A DNA stretch of 9,683 nucleotides from a virus (lineage: Duplodnaviria; Heunggongvirae; Uroviricota; Caudoviricetes). A model generated the notes under the pieces. That model had not been told where the DNA came from and did no database searches. It worked only from the letters and a program-made list of their open reading frames with translations. Position numbers and translations under genes: made by a program. The stretch lies in the IMG/VR virus record IMGVR_UViG_2802429242_000007; one strand, written 5' to 3'. This document shows, piece after piece, positions 1,651 to 9,683 of the stretch (positions are counted from its first letter, which is position 1; the number at the start of each line of letters is the position of its first letter).

Positions 1651-2436
1651 TTACTTGATAAATCCTGCTGCCTTTCCTCGCCTGTATTCCTCCATCAGCC
1701 ACTGCGCCGGTGTTATTCCCCCCAGGGTGGCGGCGTTAGGCATGCACCCGAAACTTCGCCCTGGTGGATGGTAAACATCTCTCCCTGTGTCCGGAGGCGT
1801 ACTCATGGGTTCTGGCTTTGCCTGTATGCTGATCACCGGATCGGGTATCTGCTGTCCGGAAGCCACCTTTTTCGCCCAATCATCGAGCAGCCTGCGCGCG
1901 TGTTTCTCAACCTCAATCTCGCTAAGCTGGCGCTGATACATTGCACGGCGGGTATCACATACGACCCAGTACATAACCGGATGCCGCCACGGGAATCTTT
2001 CGGGACCACCAGGATATAAACTTTTTTCCTTGCTGTACCGGTGAAACTCCGCCATCACATCGTCAATGGTGACGCCAAGAACCATCTTGCTGTCTTTACA
2101 CCACTTGATGAATTGCCCTGGCGACGGCCAGAACGGAGACTCACTGGCGCGGGCGTGGCGCATACCAGCAGAAACCTGTTCACGGGTTCGGATCCCCCCT
2201 TCGGCAAACGCAGCAATCCACTGCTGTTTTGCAGCAACTTCCTGCTCTGGCGTCTTCAGGTTGGTTACCACTGCCGCCGGAAAGAGTTGTTTCAGCTGTT
2301 TGAAAAGGGCATCAACAAGCCTCTCTGCTGACATGTTCACCACGTTGTCATTGTTGGTGTACTGATGCTCATAACCTGACATGCGAGAAAGGGCTTCTCC
2401 GTCACGGTTTTGTATCGCGGTAAAAACGTTGTTCAC
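1651..2436 (-). CDS. lambda P-like replication protein (helicase loader)
   Basis: Translation contains ...FPAAVVTNLKTPEQEVAAKQQWIAAFAEGGIRTREQVSAGMRHARASESPFWPSPGQFIKWCK..., closely matching the remembered conserved core of lambda P (FLPSPGQF..WC). Start preferred at GTG 2436..2434 (GTGA overlap with the O-like stop) with a perfect GGAGGA 6 nt upstream, rather than the track's ATG at 2451. Confidence 0.85.
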   Translation of the reverse strand: MNNVFTAIQNRDGEALSRMSGYEHQYTNNDNVVNMSAERLVDALFKQLKQLFPAAVVTNLKTPEQEVAAKQQWIAAFAEGGIRTREQVSAGMRHARASESPFWPSPGQFIKWCKDSKMVLGVTIDDVMAEFHRYSKEKSLYPGGPERFPWRHPVMYWVVCDTRRAMYQRQLSEIEVEKHARRLLDDWAKKVASGQQIPDPVISIQAKPEPMSTPPDTGRDVYHPPGRSFGCMPNAATLGGITPAQWLMEEYRRGKAAGFIK

Positions 2437-3248
2437 AAGAAATCCTCCCATGCTTCAGGGCTGTTCCAGTGCGGAACGTTGTTATCAGGTAATGTTGATT
2501 GCTTCTGTCTGCTAATCTGCAGCCGCCTTGCCAGCTTCTGCTCCCACTGTGCCTGATGGTATGCCTTACCCTCAGCCATCCAGTAAATTCTGAACTCTGC
2601 AAGTTCCTGTGCCGTTGGCAGACTGTCCAGGTAGATCCCCTGCAATGAGCTTTTCCGAAGAAAGTCATCTGATGGCTGCCATTGTTCATGCATGACAAAT
2701 TTGCCTAATTGCCCTGGCCCACCAGGAGGAACAAAGTTATTCATCACGGCGTTGTTTGCACCGGGGTCATGAGGCACAGAATCCCCGCTTTTTGTCCTGC
2801 TCTCCCTCTCTTGGTTAAATGACTGGTTATATGACTGGTTCTGGATCCCGTTTTTGGGATCATTCAACATCCCGTTTTTGGGATCATTCAACATCCCGTT
2901 TTTGGGTATATTCCCGTTTTCGGGAACATTGCCGTTTTCGGGTTCATTGCTCCCTTTCCGGTTGCCTTTAATGTTCCCGTTTTTGGTTATATTAAGAGAG
3001 AAAACCCGCACTCTTTTCGTCGCTCCCTTTCTCTCTCCGGTATCTGAAATAAGCCCCATTTTCATGAGCAATATAAGCCCGGCCTGCACGGTTTTTTTAT
3101 TCAGGCAAGTGTCTTTAACGAGGCGTTCTATGCTGGGGTAGCAGAGGTTATATTCATCGGCTCTGTCAGCCATCGAGAGCAGTATGAGCTTTAATGACGA
3201 GCTACCTGGATCTGTCTCCCAGGCCCAATCTGTTGCATGTCTGCTCAT
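2433..3248 (-). CDS. O-like replication initiator: N-terminal winged-HTH, Asn/Gly/Pro-rich repeat linker, C-terminal DnaT-like domain
   Basis: N-terminus WAWETDPGSSSLKLILLSMADRADEYNLCYPSIERLVKDTCLNKKTVQAGLILLMKMGLI resembles the replisome-organizer HTH; C-terminus ...MHEQWQPSDDFLRKSSLQGIYLDSLPTAQELAEFRIYWMAEGKAYHQAQWEQKLARRL resembles the DnaT C-terminal domain. ATG 3248..3246 with GGAG 7 nt upstream. The iteron array lies inside the gene, as ori-lambda lies inside O. Confidence 0.8.
   Translation of the reverse strand: MSRHATDWAWETDPGSSSLKLILLSMADRADEYNLCYPSIERLVKDTCLNKKTVQAGLILLMKMGLISDTGERKGATKRVRVFSLNITKNGNIKGNRKGSNEPENGNVPENGNIPKNGMLNDPKNGMLNDPKNGIQNQSYNQSFNQERESRTKSGDSVPHDPGANNAVMNNFVPPGGPGQLGKFVMHEQWQPSDDFLRKSSLQGIYLDSLPTAQELAEFRIYWMAEGKAYHQAQWEQKLARRLQISRQKQSTLPDNNVPHWNSPEAWEDFL
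2845..2990. repeat. iteron array (candidate origin of replication) inside the O-like gene
   Basis: 24-bp direct repeats start at 2845, 2869 and 2893 (the first two identical: atcccgtttttgggatcattcaac). Degenerate copies follow at 2912-2925 (TCCCGTTTTCGGGA, itself palindromic), 2931-2942 and 2975-2986. Core motif is CCCGTTTT(T/C)GGG. Confidence 0.75.
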
Positions 3249-3999: not shown

Positions 4000-4584
4000 A
4001 TGAAAAGTATCCAGGACGTCCGCAGGCAAAATCTCAACGACTTGATCGACCGTGAATTCAATGGTGTTCAGACGCGGATGGCTGAAAAACTTGGAACTCA
4101 GGCAAATCTGGTAAACCGCTGGGCTCTTGGCAAGAAGGTTATCGGCGACCAGGTTGCACGAAAAATTGAAGCTGCCGCCAATAAACCCCGTAACTGGCTT
4201 GATATCGATCGCTCGCTTTCTCAGGAAGGTTTTCAGCCTGTCGGCCCAAGCGACATTGGCCAGCTGGCGGCTCACAACCTGGAACGCTGGATGAGCGAAA
4301 GCCGCGACCTTTCAACACAGGGAAAACTTCACCGCGCATCCGGCGTAGCCCAGGTGACAATCAGCCGCCTGTTAAACAATGAGGTCAGCGTTTCCATTTC
4401 CACCCTGGAGAATGTTGCATCCGCATTCGGGCGTCACGGCTATGAATTACTGATTCACCCGCACGACCCTGCGACCATCAACTATGATCGCTCGCGCTAC
4501 GCATTGTTACCCGAAACCGAGAAAGCAAAGATCGAAAGTTACATTGAATTTGTCATCAACCAGAACGAAAAAAACAAACAATAA
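4000..4584 (+). CDS. CI-like immunity repressor with two XRE-type HTH domains and no S24 peptidase domain, 194 aa
   Basis: Two HTH-like segments: QTRMAEKLGTQANLVNRWALGKKVIGDQVARKIEAAANKPRNWL and LSTQGKLHRASGVAQVTISRLLNNEVSVSISTLENVASAFGRHGYEL. No Ala-Gly/Ser...Lys autocleavage module is visible. Divergent from the Cro-like gene and flanked by operator clusters. Confidence 0.7.
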   Translation: MKSIQDVRRQNLNDLIDREFNGVQTRMAEKLGTQANLVNRWALGKKVIGDQVARKIEAAANKPRNWLDIDRSLSQEGFQPVGPSDIGQLAAHNLERWMSESRDLSTQGKLHRASGVAQVTISRLLNNEVSVSISTLENVASAFGRHGYELLIHPHDPATINYDRSRYALLPETEKAKIESYIEFVINQNEKNKQ

Positions 4585-4604: not shown

Positions 4605-4630
4605 AAGCCGCCTTATGGCGGCTTTTTTAT
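4605..4630 (+). terminator. intrinsic terminator after the repressor gene
   Basis: AAGCCGCC-ttat-GGCGGCTT (8-bp stem) followed by TTTTTTAT, 20 nt after the stop. Confidence 0.7.
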
Positions 4631-4640
4631 TGCCTATTCG

Positions 4641-4718
4641 ATTACCTAACGGGTAATTTTTTTAACTCATATCTATTGACATCAAACCATATACGCATAA
4701 TTATTACCTCAACGGTAA
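4641..4718 (+). promoter_or_regulatory. promoter-operator cassette (PL-like) for the rightward operon: operator sites 4641-4657 and 4704-4718 flanking a sigma70-like promoter
   Basis: ATTACC-taacg-GGTAAT (4641-4657) and TTACC-tcaac-GGTAA (4704-4718), starts 62 bp apart. -35 TTGACA (4676-4681), 17-bp spacer, -10 AATTAT (4699-4704). The geometry matches the 1537-1614 cassette exactly. Confidence 0.6.
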
Positions 4719-4737: not shown

Positions 4738-4890
4738 ATGCAGTGGAAAATCATCAACGGTTGGTACTGCGTTACTGCATGCGGATTCATGAGCTGGAAG
4801 TTCCGCACCTTACAGGAAGGCATTAAGTGGGCTTTCGTCAGCAAAGAAGCTCGCGATGTGGCCAACGATAACGAGATATGGGAGGGCTGA
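4738..4890 (+). CDS. small Trp/Cys-rich protein, 50 aa, first gene of the rightward operon
   Basis: ATG 4738 with GAGGT 8 nt upstream; MQWKIINGWYCVTACGFMSWKFRTLQEGIKWAFVSKEARDVANDNEIWEG. Not in the ORF track, probably because of a length cutoff. The stop lies within the next gene's ribosome-binding region. Confidence 0.45.
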   Translation: MQWKIINGWYCVTACGFMSWKFRTLQEGIKWAFVSKEARDVANDNEIWEG

Positions 4891-4892
4891 TA

Positions 4893-5192
4893 ATGAACGT
4901 TAATCAGCAGAAAAATCTTCAAAAAATCATGCTGGCATTCGACAAGGACTACCGCCTGTCAGAACAGCTATATGACCGACAAGTTGAACTGATTGAGAGC
5001 ATCCGACTTCATCAACTGTCCTCAACTTTCGACGTTGTAACAGGCAAAGGCGTTCGTCAGGAAGTACTGGAGGCTGCTAAAGACAGCCCTGAGTTCGAAG
5101 AACTGATGGATGCCTATCGGCGAGAGGCAATGGCAATTATCGCCCGCTGGGATCTGGCTGATCAGCTTGATGGGCAGAGGGACGCGGCATGA
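4893..5192 (+). CDS. hypothetical phage early protein, 99 aa
   Basis: ATG 4893 with GGAGGG 6 nt upstream (the track's start at 4878 is less likely); stop overlaps the exonuclease ATG (ATGA at 5189-5192). Confidence 0.6.
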   Translation: MNVNQQKNLQKIMLAFDKDYRLSEQLYDRQVELIESIRLHQLSSTFDVVTGKGVRQEVLEAAKDSPEFEELMDAYRREAMAIIARWDLADQLDGQRDAA

Positions 5193-6010
5193 AACCGGGA
5201 ATTTATTTCGACATCAGCAACGAAGACTACCACGCCGGTGACGGCGTGAGTAAGTCGCAACTGGACATGGTTGCCAAGAATCCGGCGCTTCTTAAATGGG
5301 TTCAGGCAGCACCAGAAGACGAAGAGAAAAAGTCTGCACTGGATATGGGAACCGCATTGCACTGCCTGCTTCTGGAACCTGGAGAATTCGACAAACGCTT
5401 CATCGTTTCACCGAAATTCGATCGTCGGACGAAACAAGGTAAAGCTGACGAAGAGGCATTTCTTCGTGATGTGGCGGATATGGGGATTACGGTACTTGAT
5501 GCCGAGCAGTGGCGGAAACTGGAGCTGATGCGTGATAGCGCAATGGCTCACCCGGCGGCACGCTGGATGCTGGAAGCCCCTGGTTACTGCGAAGCATCAA
5601 TGTACTGGAACGATGAAGATACGGGTGAGTTGTGCCGCATTCGTCCAGACAAATGGCTGAACGAGCACAACGTGATCGTCGACGTGAAAAAGGTTGCAGA
5701 TATGGACCGTTTTGCACGCCACATCGAGGAATTCCGCTACCACGTGCAGGACGCAATGTACCGCGAAGGCGCAATGAGGGTTACTGGTCAGCCGCATGGT
5801 TTTTTCTTTCTTGCCGTGAGCGAAAGCATTGATTGTGGTCGATATCCGGTACGCGTGTTCGAGCTGGATGCGCCGGATGTCGATGCCGGGCACGCTCTGT
5901 TCCGCCGGGATCTGAATACCTATCACGAATGCCGCATCAACGATGAGTGGGGCGGAGTGGAAATTATTAAACGCCATGACTGGGCACGTAAACAGGATAT
6001 GTACGTATGA
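5189..6010 (+). CDS. PD-(D/E)XK exonuclease of the RecE (exodeoxyribonuclease VIII) C-terminal-domain type, 273 aa
   Basis: N-terminus MKPGIYFDISNEDYHAGDGVSKSQL and an internal D...VDVKK motif fit the RecE-type nuclease domain as I recall it; ATGA-coupled to the downstream annealing protein, as in recE-recT. Confidence 0.7.
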   Translation: MKPGIYFDISNEDYHAGDGVSKSQLDMVAKNPALLKWVQAAPEDEEKKSALDMGTALHCLLLEPGEFDKRFIVSPKFDRRTKQGKADEEAFLRDVADMGITVLDAEQWRKLELMRDSAMAHPAARWMLEAPGYCEASMYWNDEDTGELCRIRPDKWLNEHNVIVDVKKVADMDRFARHIEEFRYHVQDAMYREGAMRVTGQPHGFFFLAVSESIDCGRYPVRVFELDAPDVDAGHALFRRDLNTYHECRINDEWGGVEIIKRHDWARKQDMYV

Positions 6011-6888
6011 GCAATGATATCGCAATCACATCACAACCAGGCGCAACTGTAGGTACTGCTGCGGCAATCTTCAGCCCGGAGGGCATGAATCAACTGGTGC
6101 GTTTCGCGGAGTTGATGTCACAAAGCAAAGCGACTGTACCGAAACATCTTGAAGGCAAACCTGCCGATTGTCTGGCGGTGACCATGCAGGCGGCACAGTG
6201 GGGAATGAACCCTTTCGCCGTGGCGCAGAAAACGCATGTGGTAAACGGAACGTTAGGCTACGAAGCACAGTTGGTAAACGCGGTCGTATCCTCTTCCAGC
6301 CTGCTAGCGACACGCCTGAATTATCGCTGGAGCGGTGACTGGTCGAATGTTAACGGCAAAACAGATAAATCACCGAATCTGACGGTAACTGTGTCAGCAG
6401 TTCTTAAAGGAGAAGCAGAACCCCGTGAGCTTACCATCAGTATGGCGCAAGCCGGAGTGCGTAACTCTCCATTGTGGGAACAGGATCCGCGCCAGCAACT
6501 TGCCTATCTTTGCACGAAACGATGGGCTCGCCTGCACGCTCCTGATGTACTTCTCGGTGTTTACACCCCAGACGAATTACAGGAAACGGCACCGCGCGTT
6601 GAGCGAGACATTACTCCGCAAACGACTACTGCTGCGGGAATGAACAGTCTGATCAACGCTAAACCAGCGAAAAAGCATGATGAGCAAACGCGTAAAGCGG
6701 ATAGCCGTGATCCAGAAGAAATGCTGATGGCCTTTACCAGCGCAGCGATGAATTACAGCACTGTCTCCGAACTGGATAAGGCTTACAAATACATTGCACA
6801 AAAACTTTCAGATGATGACGAACTGCTGGCAAAAGCCACCGACGTTTACAGCGTTCGTCGGGAAGAATTAAACGAAACATCTATGTAA
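6007..6888 (+). CDS. RecT/Red-beta family single-strand annealing protein, 293 aa
   Basis: Core ...CLAVTMQAAQWGMNPFAVAQKTHVVNG... resembles the RecT/Bet conserved region, and an ERDITP motif is shared with my recollection of lambda Bet. Sits immediately after the exonuclease with an ATGA overlap. Confidence 0.75.
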   Translation: MSNDIAITSQPGATVGTAAAIFSPEGMNQLVRFAELMSQSKATVPKHLEGKPADCLAVTMQAAQWGMNPFAVAQKTHVVNGTLGYEAQLVNAVVSSSSLLATRLNYRWSGDWSNVNGKTDKSPNLTVTVSAVLKGEAEPRELTISMAQAGVRNSPLWEQDPRQQLAYLCTKRWARLHAPDVLLGVYTPDELQETAPRVERDITPQTTTAAGMNSLINAKPAKKHDEQTRKADSRDPEEMLMAFTSAAMNYSTVSELDKAYKYIAQKLSDDDELLAKATDVYSVRREELNETSM

Positions 6889-6896
6889 CCACCACC

Positions 6897-6915
6897 GCGG
6901 CGCAACACGCGCCGC
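6897..6915 (+). other. GC-rich hairpin without a U-tract, between the annealing-protein and excisionase genes
   Basis: GCGGCGC-aacac-GCGCCGC (perfect 7-bp stem), 9 nt after the TAA stop; no T-run follows. Confidence 0.4.
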
Positions 6916-6937
6916 ACTGCAACCAAGAGAGGTATTT

Positions 6938-7186
6938 ATGAAAGGTGCATTAGGTAAGAAGGAACTCCTGGCGGTGGTGCCACTGTCATGGAGCACTATC
7001 GACCGTATGGAGCGCGCAGGGGAATTTCCTAAACGCTGGTATATCACTGACAAACGCTGCGCATGGAACCGTGATGAAGTTGAGCGTTGGCTTGATGAAC
7101 GTCAGGCAGCAAGCCCGGCAGAGTTCCAAGGTAAAAAACCTCCTGTTCAGCAACGTGTATATCGTCCTGTGAGCAACGCGGCATGA
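6938..7186 (+). CDS. AlpA/Xis-family excisionase-like DNA-binding protein, 82 aa
   Basis: LLAVVPLSWSTIDRMERAGEFPKRWYITDKRCAWNRDEVERWLDER fits the AlpA/excisionase winged-helix pattern; GAGAGG 6 nt upstream of the ATG. Confidence 0.75.
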   Translation: MKGALGKKELLAVVPLSWSTIDRMERAGEFPKRWYITDKRCAWNRDEVERWLDERQAASPAEFQGKKPPVQQRVYRPVSNAA

Positions 7187-7299
7187 GTGTGCTGCTAAAG
7201 CACTGGAGCAAATGGTCAGGATGGTACTTATTCCTGGCCTCTGTTTCAGCATGGCTTTATCTGCTGGCATTAATTTTCAGAGAGGGTTGGATTAAGTGA
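7183..7299 (+). CDS. small hydrophobic peptide, 38 aa, possibly membrane-associated
   Basis: ATG overlaps the excisionase stop (ATGA at 7183-7186); MSVLLKHWSKWSGWYLFLASVSAWLYLLALIFREGWIK has one predicted transmembrane-like stretch. Not in the ORF track (short). Confidence 0.4.
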   Translation: MSVLLKHWSKWSGWYLFLASVSAWLYLLALIFREGWIK

Positions 7300-7595
7300 G
7301 AGAGTTAAGCCGACTTGAAAAATATCACATGAACAAGGTTTCAATGCGCAGCCCTTCAAAGGTTGTTGCCGTTACTCCTGCGGCGATAGAGATCGAAAAA
7401 CGCGCGATTGAAAGAGAGCAAAAAGGGCAATTCCGAATTGCCGCCTACCTTTGGCTTCAGTGTATGGATGTTGCTTCTGGTGATGTTGAGCGTGCAAGGA
7501 TCGCGGTTCGCAGGGACCAATGTATCACAAAAGGTAACGGCCTTCGCCGTGGCGACTATAGCGGCATAGGATGTTGTGGGGTGGTTTATGACTAA
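7296..7595 (+). CDS. ANR-like (Aar-type) small regulatory protein; start uncertain
   Basis: ...AAIEIEKRAIEREQKGQFRIAAYLWLQCMDVASGDVERARIAVRRDQC... resembles the ANR family pattern. Start may be GTG 7296 (GTGA overlap with the peptide stop), ATG 7329 or ATG 7344. 3' end overlaps the methyltransferase start by 8 nt. Confidence 0.5.
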   Translation: MRELSRLEKYHMNKVSMRSPSKVVAVTPAAIEIEKRAIEREQKGQFRIAAYLWLQCMDVASGDVERARIAVRRDQCITKGNGLRRGDYSGIGCCGVVYD

Positions 7596-8238
7596 GAAAT
7601 ACACACTAATCTATGCAGATCCACCCTGGGTATACCGGGACAAAGCCGCAGATGGTAATCGCGGTGCCGGTTTTAAATATCCGGTTATGAGTGTGCTGGA
7701 TATCTGCCGCCTTCCTGTGTGGGATTTGGCCGATGAAAACTGTCTGTTGGCCATGTGGTGGGTGCCAACACAACCACTCGAAGCACTAAAAGTTGTTGAA
7801 GCCTGGGGATTCCGTCTGATGACGATGAAGGGCTTCACGTGGATAAAATGTGGTAGTCGACAACCAGATAAACTTGTTATGGGTATGGGACACATGACTC
7901 GCGCCAATAGTGAAGATTGCCTGTTTGCGGTAAAGGGAAAACTACCTACGCGCATTAATGCAGGGATCGTTCAGTCATTTACCGCACCGCGGCTTGAGCA
8001 TTCAAGAAAGCCAGATATCGTTCGTGAAAAACTTGTGCAATTATTAGGCGATGTTTCTCGCATTGAACTGTTCGCCCGCCAGACGTCTCATGGCTTCGAT
8101 GTTTGGGGTAATCAGTGCGAAGACCCGGCAGTGCAACTACACCCTGGATACGCGTTGGATATTGGCGGATTAACAAATGCATTCAGCAATGCTCCGCTGT
8201 CACCAACAGACAACCAGGGACGGGAGCGTGCTGCATGA
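7588..8238 (+). CDS. MT-A70-family DNA N6-adenine methyltransferase, 216 aa
   Basis: DPPW catalytic motif near the N-terminus (YTLIYADPPWVYRD) and downstream conserved blocks (LLAMWW, EAWGF, GMGHMTRANSEDCLFAVKG). Start at ATG 7588 with GGGGTGG upstream rather than the track's GTG at 7576. Confidence 0.85.
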   Translation: MTKKYTLIYADPPWVYRDKAADGNRGAGFKYPVMSVLDICRLPVWDLADENCLLAMWWVPTQPLEALKVVEAWGFRLMTMKGFTWIKCGSRQPDKLVMGMGHMTRANSEDCLFAVKGKLPTRINAGIVQSFTAPRLEHSRKPDIVREKLVQLLGDVSRIELFARQTSHGFDVWGNQCEDPAVQLHPGYALDIGGLTNAFSNAPLSPTDNQGRERAA

Positions 8239-8429
8239 ACAGGGCATCACCAGCAGATTTAAGAAAATGCCTTGAAACTGCAAACATGCTTGCACACAGC
8301 GGGATCAGGTTTGTTCCAATTCCCGCTGTCACTGATGCTGAATTTGCAACACTGTCAGCAATATTCGAAAACAAAATTGAATCACTGGCAGCAGAAGCAG
8401 AGATGGAAGAAAATCAGCAGAACTATTAA
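8235..8429 (+). CDS. hypothetical small protein, 64 aa, translationally coupled to the methyltransferase
   Basis: ATG 8235 overlaps the methyltransferase stop (ATGA); MNRASPADLRKCLETANMLAHSGIRFVPIPAVTDAEFATLSAIFENKIESLAAEAEMEENQQNY. The track's longer version (from 8115) overlaps the methyltransferase in another frame and is rejected. Confidence 0.55.
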   Translation: MNRASPADLRKCLETANMLAHSGIRFVPIPAVTDAEFATLSAIFENKIESLAAEAEMEENQQNY

Positions 8430-8432
8430 ACG

Positions 8433-9683
8433 TTATTCCCCCGCCATCCACTTCTCAAACTTCGACGGGGAGAACGGAATCAGATCCGTATGCTCCCCGT
8501 CAATCCATGAATCAATCATATCGGCCCACTGCTGCAACATGTAGGCGCGCTGTCTGGCGTATTCCGCTTTGTTATATACGGCGCGCACACCTTTCTGCTC
8601 ATGTGCCAGAGCCTTTTCAATCCAGTCTGAAGGATAACCAGCCTCATGCAACAACGTACTGGCTGTACGGCGCATATCATGTACAGTGAAGTCCTGAATA
8701 TGCTCACCATCTTCATTTATTATTTTCACCGTTCTGTCGATCAGAGAGTTCAGCGCGGCATTAGATAATGGCTTCCGGAAATTGTAACGACCAGGAACCA
8801 GATATTCACTTCCACCAGCGCACATCTGCAACCCGACCAATATATCCTGTGCCTGTTTAGGCAGGTAAATAACGTGCGCCCGGCTTCCCTTCATGCGGTC
8901 TGGAGGAATTGTCCATGTCCATTTTTTAAAATCTATTTCATCCCACGTTGCATTGGTGAATTCGCCCTTACGAACCATAGTGATAAGCACCAGTTTTAAA
9001 GCCATTTTCATAGTGCCCATAGCACCAATGGCATCCAGCGTGCGGAAGAACAGGCCAATTTCTTCTGGTGTCAGTGTTCGCTCTCGTGGTTTAAATATGG
9101 CGATAGACGAAGGTTTAATGTCAGCCGCAGGATTAAACAAACCATGACCACGGTCATTGGCGTGACGGTATACGCTACTGATGATCTCCCTGGCCTGCAC
9201 TGCTGTTGCCCGGCCACCGCGTTCGACAATCCGGTCACACAAATCACGAACCATCGATGTGGTAATTTCAGCCATCATTTTATTGCCAAGAGCCGGAAGT
9301 ATGTCACGGTCGATCACCGCCTGTTTCATTGCGCGGGTACTGTCAGCCAGGATGACGTGTTTCATATAACTGTCGGTATGTACCGCAAACGTCTCGGCAC
9401 CACGAATCTTTTTGATACCGTCACGTTTAGCCGCAGCCGGTGACTGGCCTGCTTTAAGCAGCTTCTTTGCAGCAATCAGTTCTTCTCGCGCTTCTGCCAG
9501 GCTGATACCGTCACGCCCATACTGCCCGATTACCAGTGTTTCGCGGCGACCGTTGATACGGTAGTCATAGCGAAACGAGACCGTGCCTGACGTAAGCACA
9601 GCTACATACAGCCCGTCACGATCGGAGACCTTGTACAGTTTGTCCTGCGGCTTGAGGTTTTTTAATTTTGTATCGGTAAGCAC
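8433..9683 (-). CDS. int: tyrosine site-specific integrase, P4-like family; 5' end at or just beyond the window edge
   Basis: 416 codons; N-terminal arm-binding-type sequence (LTDTKLKNLKPQDKLYKVSDRDGLYVAV) and a C-terminal catalytic region with the H-x-x-R box (HDMRRTASTLL) and a Tyr-containing tail (VYNKAEYARQRAYMLQQWADMID). The first in-window codon is GTG at 9683, so the true start may lie 1-3 codons outside. Confidence 0.9.
   Translation of the reverse strand: MLTDTKLKNLKPQDKLYKVSDRDGLYVAVLTSGTVSFRYDYRINGRRETLVIGQYGRDGISLAEAREELIAAKKLLKAGQSPAAAKRDGIKKIRGAETFAVHTDSYMKHVILADSTRAMKQAVIDRDILPALGNKMMAEITTSMVRDLCDRIVERGGRATAVQAREIISSVYRHANDRGHGLFNPAADIKPSSIAIFKPRERTLTPEEIGLFFRTLDAIGAMGTMKMALKLVLITMVRKGEFTNATWDEIDFKKWTWTIPPDRMKGSRAHVIYLPKQAQDILVGLQMCAGGSEYLVPGRYNFRKPLSNAALNSLIDRTVKIINEDGEHIQDFTVHDMRRTASTLLHEAGYPSDWIEKALAHEQKGVRAVYNKAEYARQRAYMLQQWADMIDSWIDGEHTDLIPFSPSKFEKWMAGE

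Follow-up and report, generated by a model that had tools for sequence, protein, structure and literature searches.

A conserved hairpin inside the integrase gene, next to a 3-nt convergent junction in a phiV10-like prophage

The window examined here is a 9,683-nucleotide (nt) stretch of a Caudoviricetes virus (IMG/VR record IMGVR_UViG_2802429242_000007), which is the early-left and integration region of a phiV10/epsilon15-like (Uetakevirus) prophage integrating at guaA. Near its right-hand end, two transcription units converge. The plus-strand open reading frame (ORF) at 8235-8429 starts with ATG at 8235, encodes a 64-amino-acid (aa) homologue of lambda Orf63, and stops with TAA at 8427-8429. 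The integrase gene, int, occupies the minus strand at 8433-9683, encodes a 416-aa P4-type tyrosine integrase (Int), and stops at 8433-8435, where TTA is the reverse complement of TAA. Only the spacer ACG (8430-8432) lies between the two stops, and both its length and the stop positions are exactly those given by the first-pass annotation of this DNA. Inside the last codons of int, 35 nt past the rightward stop, begins the GC-rich hairpin (8464-8501) that forms the subject of this report.

The junction and the hairpin inside int

A consensus scan of both strands found no stem-plus-U-tract terminator near the junction, although the same scan does find canonical terminators elsewhere in the phage, namely at 4605-4624 in the window and upstream of int in phiV10. 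A scan for canonical promoters at the junction was negative as well. The first-pass annotation, which considered the interval 8380-8480, had seen neither a hairpin nor a U-tract. As far as stem-plus-U-tract terminators are concerned, this stands on either strand, but a strong hairpin does lie at 8464-8501, partly within that same interval. It consists of a 9-bp outer and a 5-bp inner stem, 14 bp in total, arranged as GACGGGGAG-a-ACGGA-atcaga-TCCGT-atg-CTCCCCGTC, and it falls within int codons 395-407. It has the GC-rich stem-loop soon after a stop that is expected of an intrinsic terminator, but the accompanying U tract (at least five U in the eight nucleotides directly 3' of the stem) is found neither in the plus-strand tail, AAUCCAUGAAUCAA, nor in the minus-strand tail, GAAGUUUGAGAAGU.

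Scanning every 40-nt window on both strands ranked this element as the most stable fold of the whole 9.7 kb, at -25.3 kcal/mol on the plus strand and -26.2 kcal/mol on the minus strand. The runners-up were the terminator after the repressor gene (-21.1, plus strand) and a fold at 6921-6882 (-20.7, minus strand). Folding the 101-nt interval 8380-8480 alone gave no significant structure (z +0.9 and +0.7), because this interval cuts the hairpin in half. Widening it to the 261-nt context 8300-8560 revealed the hairpin, with z = -3.2 on the minus strand and z = -1.75 on the plus strand. An Rfam scan of 7000-9683 at E values up to 1 matched no known RNA family, and none of the published annotations retrieved marks a hairpin inside int. 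A repeated protein-binding site was also considered and rejected, as second copies of the hairpin arms were sought and the arms proved to be single-copy in the window; they also bear no resemblance to the attP core.

Conservation was assessed across 17 diverged relatives with 79-99% aa identity in Int, drawn from phage records and one genome per species. A first IMG/VR scan had returned near-identical copies only, and some further hairpin variants came from scans that used diverged integrases. Nearly all relatives with at least 79% Int identity have the outer stem, and RNAalifold recovers the same consensus stem. Pair counting finds 88% of cells paired, and the observed covariation score was reached in 2 of 500 shuffles, although this covariation rests on three cells only. 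Compensation is seen at two pairs: Scandinavium sp. and P. vulneris have C-G in place of A-U, and BUCT554 has A-U in place of C-G. Such changes replace an amino acid on each side (Asp/Asn by Ala and Ser by Ala), yet the bases still pair. The inner stem occurs in two alternative registers, ACGGA/TCCGT or CACC/GGTG. Below about 75% Int identity the hairpin is absent, even from integrases at 70-73% that share the C-terminal PFSP..[FY]E.WM tail. The existence of these tailed but hairpin-free integrases rules out the idea that the C-terminal tail arose by recent read-through over an old intergenic hairpin.

Synonymous variation points in the same direction. The five codons lying fully in the stem (Gly396, Glu397, Phe404, Ser405 and Pro406) have a mean synonymous diversity of 0.08, compared with 0.32-0.60 where these amino acids occur in the rest of int, and none of 20,000 amino-acid-matched resamples was as low. 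Within the same 13-codon stretch, stem codons range from 0 to 0.21 and loop codons from 0.21 to 0.45. In 16-codon bins, diversity falls to 0.22-0.25 at codons 385-416, the lowest of the gene, against 0.41-0.59 over most of int, and amino-acid conservation in this region is lower than in most bins. The 15 lowest-diversity 13-codon windows all begin at codons 385-402. The one new item at this locus is the conserved hairpin within the int ORF, held under synonymous constraint.

The gene layout, by contrast, is not new, since it is already annotated and is ordinary for P4-type integrase modules. The identical 3-nt gap is annotated in phiV10 between p32 (DUF1382) and p31 (integrase), and the same ACG spacer occurs in about 120 related loci. 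A 701-nt junction probe is found at 80% coverage or more in 373 of 5,426 complete E. coli genomes; PGAP labels the genes there as methyltransferase, DUF1382 protein and integrase.

Gene map, cargo slot and integration module

Segment 6800-9683 is 97-99% identical to temperate podophages of the phiV10 type (Uetakevirus: phiV10, phiv142-3, ZX5 and TL-2011b) and about 80% identical to Salmonella phage epsilon15. Over this segment phiV10 (DQ126339 / NC_007804) reaches 97.9%, while the nearest matches to the window, at 99%, are phiv142-3 and some unannotated prophage records. The gene map, built from ORFs with Pfam and PHROG matches, begins on the plus strand with the repressor gene (4000-4584), followed by a canonical intrinsic terminator (4605-4624) and a candidate pL-like early-left promoter (4676-4704; TTGACA-17-AATTAT, 10 of 12 matches). 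This promoter is a consensus match only; it sits just 3' of the repressor gene and its terminator, at the position where epsilon15 has annotated operators, and it would drive the rightward operon ending at 8429. Upstream of these genes, a leftward 271-aa ORF (2433-3248) contains tandem repeats of period 12, 24 and 18 (for example ATCCCGTTTTTGGGATCATTCAAC x 2.6) at 2812-2950, which encode NG-rich peptide repeats and probably include origin iterons.

Downstream of the candidate promoter, all on the plus strand, lie two small ORFs (4738-5192), a PD-(D/E)XK nuclease gene (5189-6010) and recT (6007-6888). Here, as in the RefSeq E. coli annotation, separate ORFs with an ATGA overlap (6007-6010) encode the nuclease and RecT; the original phiV10 GenBank record has one fused 'recET' CDS (L002 1329-3089), owing either to a frameshift or to a different choice of annotation. 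Between recT and the next gene, a 49-nt gap holds a hairpin at 6882-6936 (-17.9 kcal/mol on the plus strand, -20.7 on the minus strand), and epsilon15 carries a stem-loop annotated 'transcriptional pausing' at the equivalent place. Next comes an AlpA-family gene (6938-7186), whose product is a candidate excisionase, or recombination directionality factor (RDF), and regulator. It matches Pfam Phage_AlpA at 24.2 bits (cutoff 21), PHROG 66 'excisionase and transcriptional regulator' at E 2e-16, and PDB 8c3t, of the AlpA family, at E 1.8e-11. In phiV10 one further small ORF is annotated after AlpA. A PerC-like protein (7296-7595) and an MT-A70 family DNA methyltransferase (7576-8238; Pfam MT-A70 E 2.8e-22) follow.

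The methylase stop overlaps the start of the Orf63 homologue in an ATGA (8235-8238). This last gene of the rightward operon, 8235-8429, matches Pfam DUF1382 at E 1.8e-30 over profile positions 1-60 of 60, and PDB 8dsb (Orf63) at E 8.5e-13. In lambda, Orf63, which has been equated with DUF1382, is encoded in the exo-xis region and transcribed from pL (PMC10869804).

Comparison of relatives with at least 78% Int identity shows that the interval between the methylase stop and the int stop accommodates at least 15 different cargo genes. These are unrelated to one another and include the Orf63 homologue, a NinI-type Ser/Thr phosphatase and several unknowns (L003-L017 and IMG/VR loci). Among the same loci, gaps to the int stop are -4, 0, 2, 3, 4, 13-17 or 31-35 nt. 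Tyrion, PAT1, SPN1S and PAS61 each carry a different gene, running from the methylase stop to within -4 to +4 nt of the int stop: the gap is +4 nt in Tyrion and +2 nt in PAS61, which has the NinI-type phosphatase, while PAT1 and SPN1S share a 4-nt overlap with the int stop (TTAA). BUCT554 has no cargo gene and a gap of +35 nt. Convergent ORFs also end 0-5 nt away from int in Edwardsiella, Oceanimonas and Chromobacterium, where the integrases are 55-65% identical. The slot is a sharply delimited cargo hotspot, and the near-zero spacer follows because cargo genes are exchanged exactly between the two stops. The 3-nt gap is therefore one state of a swappable cargo slot flanked by two conserved genes, and no peculiarity of this phage.

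Some relatives carry hairpins in the spacer itself. Spacers of 13-17 nt (among L012, L016, L142-L146 and L151) are small perfect palindromes (for example TAGCCGCCnnnnGGCGGCTA) whose stem includes both convergent stops, each a minimal hairpin shared by two genes; in L012 a U-rich tail comes after the palindrome on the int strand. In epsilon15 the gap is 154 nt and contains a bidirectional terminator-like hairpin, AAGCCCgtaaGGGCTTTTTT. It is annotated as 'RNaseIII, mRNA processing' (L001 4749-4787, between the last early gene and int) and scores as a bidirectional intrinsic-terminator-like element, with AAGCCCgtaaGGGCTT followed by TTTTGT. While such spacer hairpins come and go, the int-internal hairpin is the constant element of the clade at or above 79% Int identity.

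The integrase itself has Arm-DNA-bind_3 (E 3.9e-20), central Phage_int_M (5.9e-12) and catalytic Phage_integrase (1.3e-19) domains, and is 98.6% identical to phiV10 Int. The window ends at the annotated GTG start of int (9681-9683), so that the int promoter, attL and guaA lie outside it. Many IMG/VR viral contigs begin or finish at this same base, and the record was probably trimmed at a gene boundary. In phiV10 the attP core, ATTGAGTGGGAATGATT, matches the guaA 3' end and lies 190 bp upstream of int (PMC9782041 and sequence). In a 100% identical chromosomal copy, guaA and int are both on the minus strand, in that order and in the same orientation, 192 nt apart. A strong canonical terminator stands between the attP core and the int start in phiV10, and would insulate int from guaA or late-operon read-through. 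A promoter scan upstream of int in phiV10 returned no consensus promoter.

The 5' half of int also contains repeats. The 11-mer CGTGACGGTAT has three exact copies in the window, at 9161-9171 (plus strand), 9415-9425 and 9505-9515 (both minus strand), against 0.10 expected, and two of them fall in bins of reduced synonymous diversity (aa 49-64 and 81-112). Repeats resembling GGTGACGGTAT flank the phiV10 attP core (L002 5910, 5941 and 6163; spans 5910-5951 and 6163-6173), with nine matches against 1.75 expected, three of them within int. Integrase-binding sites are annotated inside int in epsilon15. The CGTGACGGTAT copies are therefore candidate arm-type Int-binding sites that would extend into the int ORF. 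Past the int stop, the minus strand has a C/G ratio of about 1 and is not C-rich, and minus-strand folding found no protective hairpin downstream of that stop in the window. Across the stop codons, the int-sense strand shows an imperfect long-range pairing whose local z-score is not significant.

How the early transcripts may end

The favoured reading, which we hold tentatively and at a little under an even chance, is that early transcripts end in a Rho-dependent manner and that their 3' end is protected by the stem-loop inside the convergent int gene. The repressor-controlled early-left operon would comprise the exo-like nuclease, RecT, the AlpA-type RDF, the PerC-like protein, the MT-A70 methylase and a one-gene cargo slot holding the Orf63 homologue, while int would be transcribed from its own promoter beside attP/attL at guaA. 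The operon-end signal would then reside in the last 70 nt of int and not in the spacer. Past the Orf63 stop, the rightward RNA would be untranslated and C-rich and would fold into the 8464-8501 hairpin, whose stem-loop has no U-rich sequence after it, as in the operon ends described by Dar & Sorek. The tract at 8430-8463 on the plus strand, antisense to int codons 408-416, is C-rich and G-poor and is a candidate part of the Rho loading region; 78-nt windows at 8420-8497 and 8440-8517 have C/G ratios of 1.76 and 1.90, within the 95th-97th percentile of the window. Rho would most likely terminate the early transcript within the antisense-int RNA. Trimming by 3' exonucleases back to the stem-loop would leave a stable early 3' end near 8502, limiting the overlap of the early transcript with int mRNA to about 70 nt. 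The anatomy, the conservation of the hairpin and the swapping of modules are observed; that Rho is needed, where the 3' end falls and whether Int levels change are what we infer.

Several observations weigh against this reading. The C/G ratio directly downstream of the hairpin is modest (1.3-1.5), the richest C tract lying upstream of and across it, whereas in the Dar & Sorek cases the rut sites are reportedly just downstream of the stem-loop. If the early operon is antiterminated like lambda pL, Rho termination would be bypassed, and a literature search for Uetakevirus transcriptomes returned nothing relevant. The low synonymous diversity spans about 30 codons, wider than the stem, and recombinational homogenisation at the mosaic boundary could account for part of it. 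A stem pair is broken in some lineages (L146/L151 and SPN1S). Finally, the TCT and AAT variants keep a G-U pair in int mRNA where the rightward RNA has an A-C mismatch, and with wobble pairs slightly favouring the int-sense strand the hairpin may act on int mRNA instead.

Read-through in both directions, as the first-pass annotation had expected, is an unlikely but substantial alternative. Early RNA polymerase would pass antisense through int, int transcripts would enter the Orf63/methylase cassette, and collision, RNase III or both would make Int levels inverse to early-operon activity. The 3-nt gap, the conservation of the tail-to-tail order across the clade and the lack of a stem-plus-U-tract terminator on either strand are all consistent with it, and some 70 nt of int mRNA would be covered by the early transcript even if that transcript ended at the hairpin. 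The expectation of antisense transcription, however, rested on there being no hairpin, and the most stable one of the window directly follows the rightward stop, together with an untranslated C-rich tract; because of them, deep antisense transcription into int is not the default expectation. Antisense RNA that is not translated is, besides, an established, classic target of Rho. The candidate promoters are also distant from the junction, at 3.7 kb (the pL-like one) and at least 1.25 kb, and the spacer hairpins or terminators of epsilon15, L012 and L142 suggest selection for insulation and not for read-through. In KplE1, int is known to be turned down when the RDF operon becomes active (PMC2951348), which favours the model. 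Excision, however, requires Int together with Xis, and an induced phage that silenced int strongly would work against itself unless Int were made beforehand. Inverse coupling of int to early-operon activity may occur, though the idea is less compelling than it first appeared.

The remaining explanations place the hairpin elsewhere or deny it a role. That it is functionless, a by-product of the conserved Gly-Glu...Phe-Ser-Pro codons with synonymous divergence lowered by recombination at the cargo boundary, seems improbable. The breadth of the low-diversity region beyond the stem, the highly mosaic slot next to it, the few covarying cells and the mismatched lineages are what such an origin would leave, but it sits poorly with stem codons far more constrained than loop codons, with compensatory changes that swap amino acids on both sides yet keep the pairing, with an inner stem rebuilt in another register by the CACC/GGTG variants, and with the most stable fold of 9.7 kb on both strands. 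It is quite improbable, too, that the hairpin acts on int mRNA nine codons before the stop, by slowing ribosomes, serving as an RNase III site or forming an exonuclease barrier that leaves non-stop messages, in effect a sib-like retroregulator inside an ORF. The slightly greater stability and stronger context z-score of the int-sense strand argue for it, as do the five variant lineages that keep pairing through G-U in the int-sense RNA only and the lack, in the window, of a protective hairpin beyond the int stop. Translating ribosomes, however, normally unwind such stems; RNase III substrates are typically longer than 14 bp with an internal loop; integrases below about 75% identity with the same tail lack the hairpin, which is hence not essential for Int; and no regulatory signal is tied to its action. 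A strand-symmetric regulatory node that would tie Int to the choice between lysis and lysogeny is the most improbable of these proposals. Here the early transcript would end at the hairpin and pair with the last 70 nt or so of int mRNA, cleavage of this duplex by RNase III would take away the int stop, and Int made from the non-stop messages would be tagged and degraded. If this were true, productive Int would be made only once the repressor shuts the early operon, and the node would amount to a sib-like retroregulator relocated into int and run by convergent transcription.

Known systems and biological meaning

The closest counterpart, phiV10, matches in gene content and order, in the 3-nt tail-to-tail gap, and in attP core and guaA site (PMC9782041), with point differences only. 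More broadly, the locus resembles integration modules of the KplE1/P4 type, in which int is transcribed independently of the RDF from its own promoter, which overlaps att; this arrangement is reportedly widespread (PMC2951348). As in those modules, the int 5' end lies beside att, int has the orientation of the gene at the att site (here guaA) and converges on the rest of the prophage, and the AlpA/TorI/Vis-like RDF, here the AlpA-family candidate, belongs to a separate transcription unit. KplE1/P4 modules also have a dedicated promoter region with arm-type repeats, and candidates for such repeats flank the attP core and recur inside int here. The present prophage further differs in using the guaA 3' end and not a tRNA gene, and in having its RDF 1.25 kb from int within the early operon and not at the far prophage end.

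The first-pass annotation had placed the excisionase about 1.2 kb from int on the opposite strand, which agrees with the 1,246 nt between the AlpA-family candidate and the int stop. It had also set this arrangement apart from the xis-int pair of lambda, and the difference is correct; the layout itself is not unusual, being standard for P4/KplE1-type modules and also found in Phi24B. In this Stx phage, experiments have characterised an int that is inverted relative to lambda and thereby freed from pL/CI control, with xis still in the pL operon and pointing towards int (PMC3064807). Both phages have an inverted int in an otherwise lambda-like early-left region, converging on an operon with xis or, here, with its candidate counterpart. 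In Phi24B, however, xis adjoins the int 3' end, whereas here the PerC-like, methylase and Orf63 genes lie between, and the integrase families differ.

For the hairpin, the operon ends of the Dar & Sorek type offer the nearest parallel, with a stable stem-loop lacking a U tract soon after the last stop, in untranslated C-rich RNA. The difference is that the present stem-loop lies within the coding sequence of a convergent gene. In kind, it would be a stem-loop-protected, probably Rho-dependent operon end placed inside a convergent gene. Two lambda elements provide further points of comparison. The sib/tI element retroregulates int via RNase III; sib itself is found past attP on the downstream side of int, and its targets are pL read-through RNAs carrying int in the sense orientation. 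The present hairpin differs from sib in lying within int codons 395-407, with attP upstream of int and with the early operon on the other strand. The OOP transcript overlaps the cII 3' end as an antisense RNA. In a similar way, with its 3' end at 8502 the early transcript would be antisense to about 70 nt of int and could support antisense control.

These observations indicate that operon-end signals can hide inside the coding sequence of a convergent gene, and that the spacer alone is misleading for judging that a junction has no terminator. Synonymous mutants of the stem offer a cheap and specific handle on whether convergent early transcription modulates the integrase. Since this prophage is present in about 7-10% of complete E. 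coli genomes and its relatives serve as reporter phages, the ends of its early transcripts and the control of its Int are of practical use.

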